A stretch of DNA of 64,000 nucleotides from a virus (Duplodnaviria > Heunggongvirae > Uroviricota > Caudoviricetes): IMG/VR virus record IMGVR_UViG_2541047712_000002. One strand, given 5' to 3'. Every line of letters begins with the position of its first letter. Positions within the stretch are counted from its first letter, which is position 1. Under the pieces are notes generated by a model. That model was given only the letters and a program-made list of their open reading frames with translations. It was not told the origin of the DNA and made no database searches. Shown one piece after another: positions 25,935 through 31,265 of the stretch. Both the position numbers and the translations under genes were made by a program.

Positions 25935-26590
25935 ATGAGCAAGCGAAATATATGCTTCATGAATCAGGCGTATATTAATTACGTGTAAGACAAACACGAA
26001 ATAATGCAAGGGAAGATTAAAAGTAAAAATACAATATTGAACGTAAAATACACTAAGAGTTAGTTATACAGAAAATTCAACTAAGCCGGGCAGTACTGAC
26101 GTTGTGTCAACCTTCCATTTTCATGGAAGGTTTTTTTTTGCTTGCGATATAACAATAGCAAACACTCATAATCTAAAAGTATTGAGTCTACATAAAACTC
26201 ACGCCTTAACCTCATGACAATCAGGCAAAAATAACAATAGAAACTATTTAAAATTTTATTTTTTTTATATTTAATCTAAACATTATTTTATCTTAACCCT
26301 TTGTTTTTTAAGAAATTCATGCAGATCACAAATATTTGAAAAACAATATTATTACCTGGCTTGTGTGTTTTTTATTGATTTTAAACACCACGATTATTGT
26401 CTTTGTCAGAATAATAGTCTAGGTTATTTGGCTTGTGCAGATCTTTTATCTATAATCGTTGTTTGATGGGTTTATATTTTTCAGTAAACTTCAAAAAAAA
26501 ACACGAATGTCTAACTAGGTTATATTCAGTTCATTTTTGTCAAATTATTAAATTATCACCTGGCTAAACTGATAACATTTACCTACTCAG

Positions 26591-26887
26591 GTGGCTGAAA
26601 TGAGGATTTCGTTAAATGAAAAAATAAAGGGAGAACGGTTTAATACGCCGGGAAACATGTCAAGGGAGCACTTTAACTTACTAATTGAGCTATCACCCAT
26701 AAGTAGCGAGAAGGTAAGATTAGCTTTATACGATTTTTTCGTTGACGGAGTAACACGTAAGGAAGCGTGCACCAGACACAATGTTTCACAAGGATATTTT
26801 TCTATTAGTGTAAGAAAATTCATTCAGGTTAATGATAGAGTAACAAAGGCTGTTAAATATTACTTGCCGAAATACTTAATTGTATAG
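26591..26887 (+). CDS. PapB/FaeB-family fimbrial transcriptional regulator (putative)
   Basis: 98-aa ORF at the head of the fimbrial gene cluster after a ~650-bp AT-rich region; size and position match small fimbrial regulators; family assignment by recollection. Confidence 0.4.
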   Translation: MAEMRISLNEKIKGERFNTPGNMSREHFNLLIELSPISSEKVRLALYDFFVDGVTRKEACTRHNVSQGYFSISVRKFIQVNDRVTKAVKYYLPKYLIV

Positions 26888-26998
26888 CTCTGTTTTTTGA
26901 TAATGGAGGTGGTTAAACAATAAAAACCGTAATATAAAACACATTCAGTTCTTAATATTTTATTTTTCCATTTAATTTTATTTAAAGATAGGTTAGAT

Positions 26999-27640
26999 AT
27001 GAAAAAGCTGACTCTTATTGCAACGTTAATGGCATCTGCTATGTCATTCTCATCTCACGCTGCTACAACATCAGCAAGCGTGAATATTACCGGCTCGATC
27101 GTTCCATCTGCATGTGCAATTAGCGCCAGTGCAAATGGAGGTACTATTGACTTTGGGAAAATCCTTTCATCAGAACTTGGTGAGCAGGGTGTTACACGTA
27201 AGGCAAAGAACGATACTCTTACTATTACGTGTGATAAAGATACTACGGCCGTAGTAAAAGTTAGTGGAAGCAATGGTGTAGATGGCAACACTTATAATTC
27301 AGATAAAGACTTCGTTAAAATTGCTGTGCAATTTACCGACGTAAATGTCACTGGCGGTAATGCTACAAATAAATTCCTCGTATCTAACGCAGCATCTGTA
27401 GATTTAGATAATCTGACGGCAGCAGGTTTTACCACCGCAGCAGGAAATAAACCGTTATTCCCGTTCAATGGAAACTATCTCGCCGTTGCTGATACAAACA
27501 ATAGCGTTGGTACATTTAAGACATTGACTGCAAATTATAGCGTCAGCGCGGTAGTGCAAAACGCTTCTGCTAAACGAGCTCTTACCCAAGGTGAACAAAC
27601 CTTCGGTGGCGCAGTTACATTCGAACTGAACTATCTATAA
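26999..27640 (+). CDS. fimbrial major subunit (chaperone-usher pathway pilin)
   Basis: 213-aa ORF with signal peptide (MKKLTLIATLMASAMSFSSHA), conserved Cys pair, Thr/Ser/Asn/Gly-rich beta-strand composition. Confidence 0.55.
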   Translation: MKKLTLIATLMASAMSFSSHAATTSASVNITGSIVPSACAISASANGGTIDFGKILSSELGEQGVTRKAKNDTLTITCDKDTTAVVKVSGSNGVDGNTYNSDKDFVKIAVQFTDVNVTGGNATNKFLVSNAASVDLDNLTAAGFTTAAGNKPLFPFNGNYLAVADTNNSVGTFKTLTANYSVSAVVQNASAKRALTQGEQTFGGAVTFELNYL

Positions 27641-28361: not shown

Positions 28362-30735
28362 AATATCTAAAAAATTATTAGCCGTTTTTATCTCTTTATA
28401 TGTATCAAATGTTTACGCAGAAGCCTATTATTTTGATGATATAGAGTTGAAAACTATTGGATTATCAAAAGATGCAGGTAACACCTTATTAAAATCTGAT
28501 AGATTTCAACCCGGGACTTATCATGTAAATATAGTTTTAAATAATTTGCCTACCAATTACCATGGAAAAATTCTTATTAACAATAACGGTTCTCCTTGTA
28601 TCACAGGTTCGTTGCTGGAGGACATAGGAATAAATATAAGCAGGTTGGCATTCGACCATGACTTGTGTTTGAAAGAGTCTCATAAGGAAGGTGTCTTTTT
28701 TTATACTAAACCAAAAAGCCAGTCCATTGAAATATATGTCCCTATTAGTTATCTTTTATCTAATGAAAGAACATATAGCCATGGTGGTACTGCAGCTATT
28801 TTTAACTATAACATTCATGCATTAAATTCACGAGGAAAATTTGGTAACACGAATAACTACACAGCTTTTCTTACATCCGGATTTAACACTGACGATTGGA
28901 TATTTCGTAACAAAACTATCGTAAGTTCCTATGATGGAAATAACGACATTAAAAACTCTGAATTATTTGCCCAAAAAACTTTTGATGGGAGTGGTAAAAC
29001 GCTAAAAGTCGGTAGTATAGATTCATTTGACCAGTTTTATGGTATGTCTTTGATTGGTTTAAATTTGAGTCCAGAATCAACATTTTCTAGTGGAATGTCC
29101 ACTACAATAACAGGTTTTTCTAATGATGACTCTCAAGTGGAGATCTATCAGGCAGGGCAGCTTGTGTATGTAGGGCAAGTACGGGCAGGCCGTTATAATA
29201 TTGACTCAGTACCTGTTCTTAACACTCAAACCCCTTTCGAGGTTGTTTTAGTTAATCAAAATGGAACGAGATCAAAAAGAACAATAACAACTGCGGAGGC
29301 ACTTATAAACTTAAAACAAAAACAAAGCAATGGCTTTTCATTGTCTATTGGAAAAGCGAACGATTTTAAAAGCTCAATATTTAATGAACCTGTTGTATTA
29401 ACTACGAATTATGGTTGGGATACCCTTGGTAATTACACTTTTAGCAGTGGCAGCTTAATTACAAATCAATTCTATTCATTGGCTGGCAGTGTTACATACT
29501 CATCATCGAGTAAGAATAATATTACTTTAACTAATTATGTGTCGTATTTAGATTTCAAAGATAATTTGAATAAAAAACGTATTGGAAACAGTTCAAGCAT
29601 AACTCTTTCAAATCAATTTTACGACAATGTTAAAATGACGAACGCTTTTATTTATAGAACAAGTGGCTATAGAGGGATTGAAGATTTAAGCTCAGATGAT
29701 TTCTGGAATTATAAATGGCAACAAACTAATAGTATATTTGCATCGTTGAAAAGTTTTGGCACCTTTGGTCTTACATATTCATTGAATGAGAGAAGTGGTC
29801 ATCGTGAAAACAGCTACGGTGTGTCATGGGGAACAAACATCTATAAAGCTTATTTGAGCACAAGCATTCAAAAGCAGCGTGTAAAATATAAAGATGATTA
29901 TTCTAATGAAACTAGGTTTTATGCCCAGCTATCAATTCCTTTATCCAATAACCAAGGGATAAACTCGTCATATTCTTCTGGCAAAAAATGGAGTCGGACT
30001 GCTGTTGACTATCGGCAATATAATAGTAACACATTTAACTATGGCCTCGGTTATGCAAATGAGCAATATGCTTCCACATCTATCAATGCAGGTTACATAG
30101 AGGCATCTAAAACATTCAGGACAACTCATGTTGGAGCAAGATACAATTTTAACCAAAACTATAAATCACTAGCAAGTTATGCAAGCGGTGGATTACTGAT
30201 AAATAATAATGCAATCACTTTATCGCCATATGAAATTGGTGACACCTTTGCCTTGATAAGAGTTGGAAATTATCCCGGTATAGAATTACAAACACCAAAC
30301 GGTAAGGTATGGACTGATAATCGAGGTAATGCTGTAGCCTCTAACTTGAATCCATATACTGCAAACCAAATTCAAGTAGTACCAGAAAACTCACCTCGTA
30401 ATATAGATGTAATGCAAGGCATAAAAAAGTCGACTCCATTTAAAGGAAGCGTTAATCAAATAAGATTTGATGCTAAGAAAGTCCAGAGATTATTGGTATA
30501 TGCAGTAGACGCGCTGAATAAACCTTTACCTTACAACGCCGAAGTAGTAAATCTGGATGATAACACAATTATGGGATTTGTAGATCATGATGGTTTAATA
30601 TTCTTCAGTGACATACCATCAAAAGCTGTTAAGGTAAATATCACACAAAATCAAAGTTGCATAATTGATTTTAGCAAGTATAAAAAAACAGAAGTTAATG
30701 AAATATTTAGCACGACACATCTAACTTGTAAATAA
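28339..30735 (+). CDS. fimbrial outer-membrane usher
   Basis: ~800-aa ORF; probable start at MNIKSRIKISKKLLAVFISLYVSNVYA (signal peptide) in frame with the 28306 ORF; Tyr/Asn/Gly/Ser-rich beta-barrel composition; C-terminal Cys pair. Confidence 0.6.
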   Translation: MNIKSRIKISKKLLAVFISLYVSNVYAEAYYFDDIELKTIGLSKDAGNTLLKSDRFQPGTYHVNIVLNNLPTNYHGKILINNNGSPCITGSLLEDIGINISRLAFDHDLCLKESHKEGVFFYTKPKSQSIEIYVPISYLLSNERTYSHGGTAAIFNYNIHALNSRGKFGNTNNYTAFLTSGFNTDDWIFRNKTIVSSYDGNNDIKNSELFAQKTFDGSGKTLKVGSIDSFDQFYGMSLIGLNLSPESTFSSGMSTTITGFSNDDSQVEIYQAGQLVYVGQVRAGRYNIDSVPVLNTQTPFEVVLVNQNGTRSKRTITTAEALINLKQKQSNGFSLSIGKANDFKSSIFNEPVVLTTNYGWDTLGNYTFSSGSLITNQFYSLAGSVTYSSSSKNNITLTNYVSYLDFKDNLNKKRIGNSSSITLSNQFYDNVKMTNAFIYRTSGYRGIEDLSSDDFWNYKWQQTNSIFASLKSFGTFGLTYSLNERSGHRENSYGVSWGTNIYKAYLSTSIQKQRVKYKDDYSNETRFYAQLSIPLSNNQGINSSYSSGKKWSRTAVDYRQYNSNTFNYGLGYANEQYASTSINAGYIEASKTFRTTHVGARYNFNQNYKSLASYASGGLLINNNAITLSPYEIGDTFALIRVGNYPGIELQTPNGKVWTDNRGNAVASNLNPYTANQIQVVPENSPRNIDVMQGIKKSTPFKGSVNQIRFDAKKVQRLLVYAVDALNKPLPYNAEVVNLDDNTIMGFVDHDGLIFFSDIPSKAVKVNITQNQSCIIDFSKYKKTEVNEIFSTTHLTCK

Positions 30736-30749
30736 GCTTTGAGGATCTC

Positions 30750-31265
30750 ATGTTTAAATTTTTTATATTGACATGCTCTTTGTTTTTATGCACAACCTGT
30801 TTTGCAGCAGAGTGTTCTATAACCAGCTCGCCAAATAATATATCTTTAGGTGATTTTTCCTTTGGTTCTCTAACTAAGGAAAAGGTAGCAGATCGATATT
30901 ATTACACCATGAAAAAAGATATTATGATTAGTGCAAAATGTAGGAATGCATCTAACATATCATTTGTCTATTCTGCACCATATAACGGTATGGGTTTTAC
31001 AATTGGTGGTGTTGATGGTTATTATACAATCAAAGTAAATAAGTTTATAGTTAATGGGGTTAGTAGGGAAGTTAGGTATGTAGACACTAACAAGAAAGTT
31101 GATTTTATTTTACCTGAGACCGCAGTTCACACTGCGATTGGAGGTGAAGATTATAGCGTTGACGTTAACTTAATGCTAAACATAGCTTTCTATTTTAATC
31201 CAAATACATCCTTAGGCAATTACAGTATTTTTACAACTGGCGAGTTTCATCTCCAAGCTCTTTAA
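30750..31265 (+). CDS. fimbrial minor subunit / tip adhesin (putative)
   Basis: 171-aa ORF with signal peptide (MFKFFILTCSLFLCTTCFA), last gene of the operon. Confidence 0.4.
   Translation: MFKFFILTCSLFLCTTCFAAECSITSSPNNISLGDFSFGSLTKEKVADRYYYTMKKDIMISAKCRNASNISFVYSAPYNGMGFTIGGVDGYYTIKVNKFIVNGVSREVRYVDTNKKVDFILPETAVHTAIGGEDYSVDVNLMLNIAFYFNPNTSLGNYSIFTTGEFHLQAL

Follow-up and report, generated by a model that had tools for sequence, protein, structure and literature searches.

A probable beta (Yhc-type) chaperone-usher operon carried as AT-rich cargo by an SSU5-supergroup phage-plasmid of Escherichia coli

Which surface structure would be specified by a set of fimbrial genes lying in the genome of a tailed phage, how did these genes reach it, and what would they mean for the cells that carry them? 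These questions are raised by the IMG/VR virus record IMGVR_UViG_2541047712_000002 (Caudoviricetes), of which a stretch of 64,000 nucleotides was analysed here (hereafter, the window). An initial annotation, made from the sequence alone, had described positions 25935-31265 as a complete chaperone-usher fimbrial operon, carried as cargo of low guanine-cytosine content (GC) inside a phage-plasmid backbone. Our results indicate that this block is probably an intact and self-contained five-gene operon of the beta (Yhc-type) chaperone-usher family, carried as AT-rich moron cargo between grxA and a tyrosine recombinase gene of an SSU5-supergroup phage-plasmid.

Five consecutive open reading frames (ORFs) on the + strand occupy positions 26591-31265, in the place and with the PapD, usher and pilin domain matches that the initial annotation had led us to expect. 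The first gene (26591-26887, with the RefSeq start at 26600; WP_032140378.1) encodes a PapB/FocB-family transcriptional regulator (Pfam PapB, E-value 4e-29, 100.9 bits). The second (26999-27640) encodes the major fimbrial subunit of 213 aa, which matches both DUF1120 (3e-6, 27.8 bits) and Fimbrial (1e-5, 26.2 bits) above the respective Pfam cut-offs of 21 and 25.6 bits, and displays a signal peptide, an N-terminal extension of ~17 residues with an alternating hydrophobic pattern ahead of the first Cys, the pair Cys39/Cys78, and a pilin-type C-terminus (...ELNYL). The third gene (27693-28361) encodes a YhcA-like periplasmic chaperone of 222 aa (PapD_N, 3.9e-21, 75.8 bits vs a cut-off of 23), and the fourth (28339-30735, with an alternative TTG start at 28306) an outer-membrane usher of 798 aa, in which Usher (1.5e-46, 159.8 bits) and PapC_N (1.3e-9, 38.6 bits) both score over the Pfam cut-offs. 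The fifth gene (30750-31265, hereafter ORF5) encodes a YhcE-like secreted single-domain subunit of 171 aa with no Pfam match, a candidate tip or initiator subunit. Among solved structures, no close relative of the major subunit was found (FimA, E ~1e-3), and nothing closer to the chaperone than CupB2 and Caf1M. The operon already carries a generic annotation in RefSeq.

The affinity of these proteins was consistent across several comparisons. For all four structural and assembly proteins, the best NCBIfam model was the same as for the counterpart encoded in the yhc locus of E. coli K-12: PRK15304 for the usher and YhcD, PRK09918 for the chaperone and YhcA (198.5 bits for the window chaperone, exceeding the 183-bit cut-off), PRK15303/15302 for the subunit and GltF/YhcF, with weak scores far under the cut-offs, and PRK15301 for ORF5 and the YhcE fragment, both at 3.5e-7. 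The NCBIfam kappa model (PefC) gave 129 bits for the window usher vs 351 bits for the beta model. In BLASTP comparisons, this usher aligned over its full length with YhcD (25% identity, 202 bits), while scoring at most 110 bits against gamma4 ushers, 73 against Caf1A and 57 against FimD; the chaperone was 35% identical to YhcA, and ORF5 displayed weak similarity to YhcE (E-value 0.002). Furthermore, in a neighbour-joining tree of ushers with 200 bootstraps, built with gamma1, gamma3, gamma4 and pi representatives and leaving out alpha, kappa and sigma, the window usher family joined YhcD at 100%. Taken together, the shared best models, the BLASTP scores and the tree place the operon either within the beta family, as a highly divergent member, or next to it as a sister lineage; the name of this family reportedly comes from the classification of Nuccio and Bäumler.

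The yhc locus defines the beta family, for which no characterisation exists and afimbrial structures or thin fibres are the predicted products (PMC5216030). The K-12 locus (gltF-yhcA-yhcD-yhcE-yhcF) and the window operon share the order of subunit, chaperone, usher and YhcE-like protein, a DUF1120 subunit, and the lack of a two-domain adhesin. Their differences are nonetheless considerable: besides the low identities of usher and chaperone, the subunits are alike at the N-terminus only, and the window operon has a PapB-family regulator, no second DUF1120 subunit (yhcF) and a GC of 34%; it is also phage-plasmid-borne, whereas the K-12 locus is chromosomal.

A further trait common to both loci concerns the chaperone cleft. 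In classical systems, Arg8 and Lys112 of PapD anchor the C-terminus of the subunit and are regarded as essential. According to our alignment, the window chaperone, its paralogs and YhcA carry Thr or Ser at the position of Arg8 and Pro at that of Lys112 (Thr and Pro in the window chaperone itself), and the equivalents of both residues are retained in FimC, YehC, Caf1M and one PapD-like chaperone. Beta-type and classical chaperones are only 16-21% identical, yet both cleft motifs still align in register, ETTVLIF and SIPLLINP in the beta type vs ATRVIY and RIKLYYRP in FimC. As judged from this alignment, the loss of both cleft residues is a departure of the whole Yhc family rather than a defect of the window copy, and beta-type systems may hold their subunits in a non-canonical manner. 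No discussion of this loss in beta-type chaperones was found in the searchable literature.

With respect to ORF5, the initial annotation had proposed a tip adhesin; the position at the tip is plausible, whereas the classic two-domain lectin adhesin must be discarded, as 171 aa are too few for it and the predicted fold is a pilin-like single domain. The mature N-terminus of ORF5 begins essentially at a Cys (...FA|AEC...), as in YhcE and the paralogs, and thus shows no N-terminal extension. In the donor-strand-exchange model, a subunit unable to donate a strand sits only at the distal end. By combining both, a tip or initiator position may be assigned to ORF5; its role as an adhesin is at most putative, and an adhesin or virulence phenotype of the carriers a matter of speculation. 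ORF5 is not a recognisable relative of the major subunit, with which it displayed no detectable sequence similarity, and its family is tiny: a word-based search recovered its own cluster only, and an exhaustive HMMER search among 1.84 billion proteins found 4 representatives at E <1e-10.

The element carrying these genes could also be defined. The window is 100% identical to NZ_CP070074.1, a 115-kb circular E. coli plasmid, non-mobilizable and IncFIB-typed, which beyond the window encodes terminase, portal, major capsid, tape measure and tail proteins, as well as ParB-type proteins. Outside the block, the backbone is 98.6% identical to Escherichia phage Cyrano (i.e., pLF82) over 99% of a 25-kb query, and 79.6% identical to Salmonella phage SSU5. 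Since phage morphogenesis and ParB-type genes lie together on one extrachromosomal replicon with homology to SSU5, the carrier is a complete SSU5-supergroup phage-plasmid. For Cyrano, virion production has been shown, with ~5.5 copies per cell (PMC9928086).

Homology to pLF82 breaks off at position 25500, the end of grxA, and picks up at 31398, which delimits the cargo as positions 25501-31397 (5.9 kb), a block that is found neither in pLF82/Cyrano nor in most relatives; the start at 25935 in the initial annotation thus proved arbitrary. The leftmost 640 bp of the cargo contain a terminator-like hairpin and a frameshifted remnant of a pliG-like gene for a g-type lysozyme inhibitor (25637-25934, + strand; 46% identity over 48 aa to K-12 PliG, E-value 5e-13), whose signal-peptide ORF and 74-aa ORF lie in separate frames. 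The location formerly given for the block, between the tRNA cluster and the replication genes, holds overall, but an ORF of 445 aa and grxA intervene between the three tRNA genes (22898-23512) and the cargo. On its right side, the neighbours are the tyrosine recombinase, a helix-turn-helix (HTH) regulator, CobT/CobS-like genes and dnaE.

The composition of the block is foreign to its surroundings, with a GC of 0.341 for the cargo vs 0.456 for the backbone, and a GC at third codon positions (GC3) of 0.23-0.35 for the operon vs 0.476 +/- 0.054 for the backbone ORFs (n=35). Moreover, the block was present in only 6 of the 194 PLSDB plasmids that match its flanks. Being neither conserved across relatives nor backbone-like in composition, it behaves as the low-GC cargo that it had been taken for.

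Among 5,426 complete E. coli genomes, 6 (~0.1%) carried the block, in every case on a plasmid and not once on a chromosome, and no record of the phage collection contained it. The usher cluster at 90% comprises 154 contigs, and in 8 of 8 sampled contexts it occupied the same slot in the same backbone. The five ORFs were intact across these 8 contexts and the 6 complete plasmids, with 5 coding single-nucleotide polymorphisms between copies and indels in homopolymer tracts only. So few differences point to a single recent acquisition in this lineage. As to the origin of the operon, a chromosomal donor was searched for in vain: no E. coli chromosome matched, and of two scans of GTDB species representatives, the first yielded nothing and the second one Yersinia nurmii usher, 24% identical.

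Beyond their own cluster, the nearest ushers (43-48% identity) belong to operons with the identical five-gene architecture (PapB, DUF1120/SCPU, chaperone, usher and a 168-aa protein), which also share the low GC and a hairpin after the subunit gene; their subunits are 47%, chaperones 55%, ORF5 counterparts 29% and PapB regulators 55-58% identical to those of the window. An architecture kept at such a distance, along with the conserved position of the hairpin, argues for purifying selection on the whole five-gene unit. Most paralogs reside in E. coli and Cronobacter, on plasmids of IncF or virulence type, beside SPATE autotransporter and hemolysin genes, whereas the window operon adjoins phage genes. 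One paralog is located on pTLYA-2, a pLF82-type phage-plasmid. In the usher tree, the pTLYA-2 allele pairs with an IncF allele (96%) and the window usher branches off first within the subfamily; judging by this topology, the window and pTLYA-2 operons were acquired independently.

Two other plasmids deserve mention in this regard. On the 116-kb Cronobacter plasmid CP193905.1, a Yhc-type paralog stands between a pap-like (pi) operon and SPATE plus hlyCABD-like genes, positions 1-6613 and 13158-22394 of this locus (L005) constituting a dense virulence-type island. NZ_CP141793.1, an SSU5-type E. coli phage-plasmid, carries a chaperone-usher operon of yeh-like (gamma4) type in another slot, at 2512-7321 of the locus analysed, adjoining a Phd/Doc toxin-antitoxin pair downstream of a DnaB-like helicase gene. 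In view of this second type of operon, fimbrial operons are recurrent cargo in SSU5-type phage-plasmids. As a general phenomenon, fimbrial cargo in this group is already known, since PapC/PapD genes belong to the shell genome of SSU5 (PMC7969092); that one-line mention was the only statement on fimbrial cargo in phage-plasmids found in the literature.

The interval upstream of the tyrosine recombinase gene varies in content among relatives. It holds the 555-bp gene CYRAN_43 in pLF82/Cyrano, a YafO-toxin pair in pEC16-2 and CP141793, YafO and a colicin-immunity gene in a Klebsiella plasmid, caf1R-caf1M-caf1A-caf1 in pMT1, and two different Yhc-type operons in the window and pTLYA-2. CYRAN_43 occupies the same grxA-integrase slot as the window operon in a nearly identical backbone; it is, unlike the fimbrial block, a single gene read from the opposite strand, of unassigned function and with no similarity to the operon. 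In lysogens it is the most strongly expressed moron of Cyrano, 723-fold above background (PMC9928086). It has been reported that cargo insertions in SSU5-like elements cluster at a single locus close to the genes for ligase and PhoH (PMC9600943).

The resemblance to the caf1 locus of pMT1 turned out to be closer than the likeness in kind that the initial annotation had drawn: pMT1 has a homologous SSU5-supergroup backbone, and its chaperone-usher cargo, caf1, fills the syntenic slot, runs in the same orientation and ends at the identical right junction. The two operons nevertheless belong to different clades: in addition to the low score between the ushers, Caf1M is 25% identical to the window chaperone. 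In caf1, the regulator is of AraC type, there is only one subunit, and an ORF5-like gene is absent. A further difference is that pMT1 lacks the tRNA-grxA segment. We take caf1 to belong, as is conventional, to the gamma3/FGL clade.

Signals for transcription were predicted at both ends of the operon. An intrinsic-terminator-like hairpin with a T-run (26109-26139, + strand; 10-bp stem, 4-nt loop) would insulate it from upstream transcription, and is followed by an AT-rich regulatory region (26140-26590) containing a sigma-70-like promoter, TTGGCT-17-TATAAT, at 26428-26456 (score 10/12), and GATC sites at 26324 and 26440. Downstream of ORF5, RNAfold predicts another terminator-like hairpin with a T-run (31278-31313, + strand). 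With these flanking hairpins and the promoter-like site, the operon has the appearance of an autonomous transcription unit. A stem-loop (27654-27683, + strand) with a perfect 13-bp stem separates the subunit gene from the chaperone gene and folds at -20 kcal/mol (z -7.65; none of 200 shuffles folded equally well), and a hairpin with a partly different stem sequence lies at the same position in the paralogous operons L005 and L006. Apart from tRNAs, no known RNA family was found in the block.

A PapB-family regulator as first gene and a stable stem-loop right after the major-subunit gene are shared with the pap operon (papI-papB; stem-loop 3' of papA), although the window usher and chaperone are not of its pi clade. 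A Pap-type Dam/Lrp phase switch was considered and rejected. The only two GATC sites are 116 bp apart rather than the canonical ~102-103, such a pair is about what chance predicts for AT-rich sequence of this length, and the upstream regions of the paralogs contain none. Inspection of 25500-26600 revealed no plausible PapI/FaeA-like ORF, shorter ORFs not having been scanned with a PapI/FaeA model; the 74-aa ORF found there is PliG-like, with no Pfam match. Several homopolymer tracts differ in length among near-identical plasmids, namely a poly-C tract at 31315-31323, just past the terminator-like hairpin of the operon (by up to 3 bases), and poly-T/poly-A tracts at ~26131, ~26259 and ~26493. 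These indels could stem from slippage, as in phase variation, or from sequencing error, from which they are indistinguishable; phase variation was not retained.

If the block is a functional beta-type operon, the PapB-like protein would govern transcription out of the AT-rich region upstream, probably a target of H-NS silencing, and the stem-loop would raise the ratio of subunit to assembly proteins through stabilisation of the upstream mRNA or partial termination. The subunits would be exported by the Sec pathway and then held by the YhcA-like chaperone. ORF5, having no donor strand, would enter the usher first and come to lie at the distal tip, and behind it donor-strand exchange would link copies of the 213-aa subunit into a surface polymer, thin or afimbrial. 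Lysogens carrying the phage-plasmid would in this way gain a new surface structure, i.e., a case of lysogenic conversion.

Several observations weigh against this interpretation. The 351 bits of the usher for PRK15304 are well below the curated cut-off of 723 (YhcD scores 1273), and its PapC_C match of 22.3 bits is under the Pfam cut-off of 27. Standard donor-strand complementation is not guaranteed in a chaperone missing both cleft residues. The stem-loop after the subunit gene, in which the initial annotation had recognised an attenuator, is followed by an A-rich tract with no U-tract on the coding strand and so is not a canonical terminator on that strand; the hairpin itself is well supported, and an element for mRNA stability or partial termination is as likely as an attenuator. 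Finally, no fimbria of the beta family has ever been observed or shown to bind (PMC5216030).

A surface polymer need not serve attachment, and the product of the operon might instead be a capsule-like or afimbrial shield, with a role similar to that of F1/Caf1 or masking receptors against other phages, and thus devoted to immune or phage evasion. The absence of a two-domain lectin adhesin, the single domain of ORF5, the prediction, from their lack of tip subunits, that beta systems form afimbrial structures or thin fibres (PMC5216030), the presence of caf1 in the syntenic slot, and the defence or toxin-antitoxin genes in neighbouring slots of relatives would all agree with such a role. Conversely, the usher is nearer to YhcD than to Caf1A (202 vs 73 bits) and the chaperone nearer to YhcA than to Caf1M (35% vs 25%), and an ORF5 devoid of donor strand argues for a defined tip; we regard the shield as a possible but rather unlikely function.

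Somewhat less probable still, in our judgement, is that the operon is cryptic passenger DNA, silenced or decaying, with no phenotype for its carriers. The GC of 0.287 at 25935-26590 is typical of silenced horizontally acquired DNA, the beta locus of K-12 is disrupted by an insertion sequence and has been termed cryptic (PMC5216030), the chaperone has no canonical cleft residues, and the block is accompanied by a pseudogene, the pliG remnant. A decaying passenger would not, however, be expected to keep all five ORFs intact in every sampled context and complete plasmid, nor its architecture and hairpin to persist in paralogs at 43-48% protein identity, and in lysogens of Cyrano this slot shows strong transcription (PMC9928086).

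PapB cross-regulates type 1 fimbriae. By analogy, the plasmid-borne PapB-family protein could act chiefly on the fimbrial switches of the host, in line with its 100.9-bit family match and its 55-58% identity in the paralogs, but we hold this to be improbable, as it leaves unexplained why four structural and assembly genes have been conserved intact, and neither a PapI partner nor a Pap-type GATC pair at canonical spacing was found.

Returning to the operon as beta-type cargo, the right junction of the block merits attention. The backbone tyrosine recombinase, annotated as an integrase (31529-32632, + strand; Phage_integrase 4.5e-10; phrog_1 integrase 3e-47), is kept in all relatives, and ~100 bp upstream of its start lies a 33-bp palindrome of 13-7-13 layout, AATGATTCCATAC-N7-GTATGGAATCATT (31398-31430), which is the exact right boundary of the variable cargo. 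In 5 of 5 elements (the window, pLF82, pMT1, CP141793 and pTLYA-2), similarity resumes at the first base of the palindrome; among these, the backbones are 72-98% identical, the 13-bp arms invariant and the 7-bp spacer variable. The number of such palindromes expected by chance is 0. Exact or one-mismatch copies of the 13-mer AATGATTCCATAC (extended consensus AATGATTCCATACATCNCAT) are present at 21680-21692, 22691-22703 and 37449-37461, the last on the - strand inside dnaE, where it is invariant while its flanks diverge, so that the layout around the recombinase gene reads + + [palindrome] -. The copies hold conserved positions in relatives and are confined to ~16 kb around the recombinase gene, with none in the other ~51 kb of the plasmid; pTLYA-2 has one further copy 127 bp past its operon. 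Such a pattern would be expected equally of an operator motif and of a core site of the lox/dif type accompanied by additional half-sites.

A bolder proposal is that palindrome and recombinase form a lox-like site of cargo capture or exchange that has repeatedly taken up surface-fibre operons (those of the window and pTLYA-2, and caf1), which would provide a concrete mechanism for the gain of F1 by Yersinia pestis. We consider it very doubtful. No second site was found at the left cargo ends, nor any attL/attR signature, the left ends in the window, pMT1 and pTLYA-2 displaying no excess of degenerate palindrome or arm copies (21 observed, 25.9 expected). The palindrome might just as well serve as an operator or in dimer resolution, and do no more than mark where conservation has to resume.

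Other parts of the element also show signs of variable content. The 445-aa ORF (23693-25030, - strand; GC 0.386) stands where pLF82 has a Gp49-family gene. It had no Pfam, NCBIfam or PADLOC match, and its sole match was phrog_18168, of unknown function; it thus received no identity as a defence system, and is a further variable cargo gene that may possibly act in defence. The ORF at 13859-14611 (250 aa; phrog_22270, unknown function) has the lowest GC in the window (0.315; GC3 0.296) and gave weak, sub-threshold PADLOC matches to PDC-M02B and LeoBC; it is probably another moron. Between tRNA-Tyr and tRNA-Ser, positions 23065-23205 contain repeats (families D1 and D6) of tRNA acceptor/D-arm and T-arm sequences, which suggests a fourth tRNA-like element, degenerate or interrupted. 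Neither ARAGORN nor Rfam called a tRNA there, and Cyrano carries a tRNA-Thr at the corresponding position. Lastly, outside the window, NZ_CP070074.1 carries metG and apbC/mrp (32739-36030 of that locus), genes that in E. coli K-12 directly adjoin the chromosomal yeh fimbrial operon; this hints at a chromosomal segment captured in the past.

The practical importance of the operon is modest for now, considering its rarity among complete E. coli genomes and the previous mention of chaperone-usher genes in the group (PMC7969092). Two threads are worth following, namely the palindromic junction common to caf1 and the non-canonical cleft of the beta-family chaperones. Cargo on phage-plasmids spreads by infection, since these elements travel in both forms, virus and plasmid. 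This complete operon for a surface structure occupies a slot with strong expression in lysogens of the closest relative, and in pMT1 that slot contains the F1 capsule genes of the plague bacillus. For the beta/Yhc family, which is experimentally uncharacterised, an intact, mobile and regulator-equipped copy would constitute a tractable handle.

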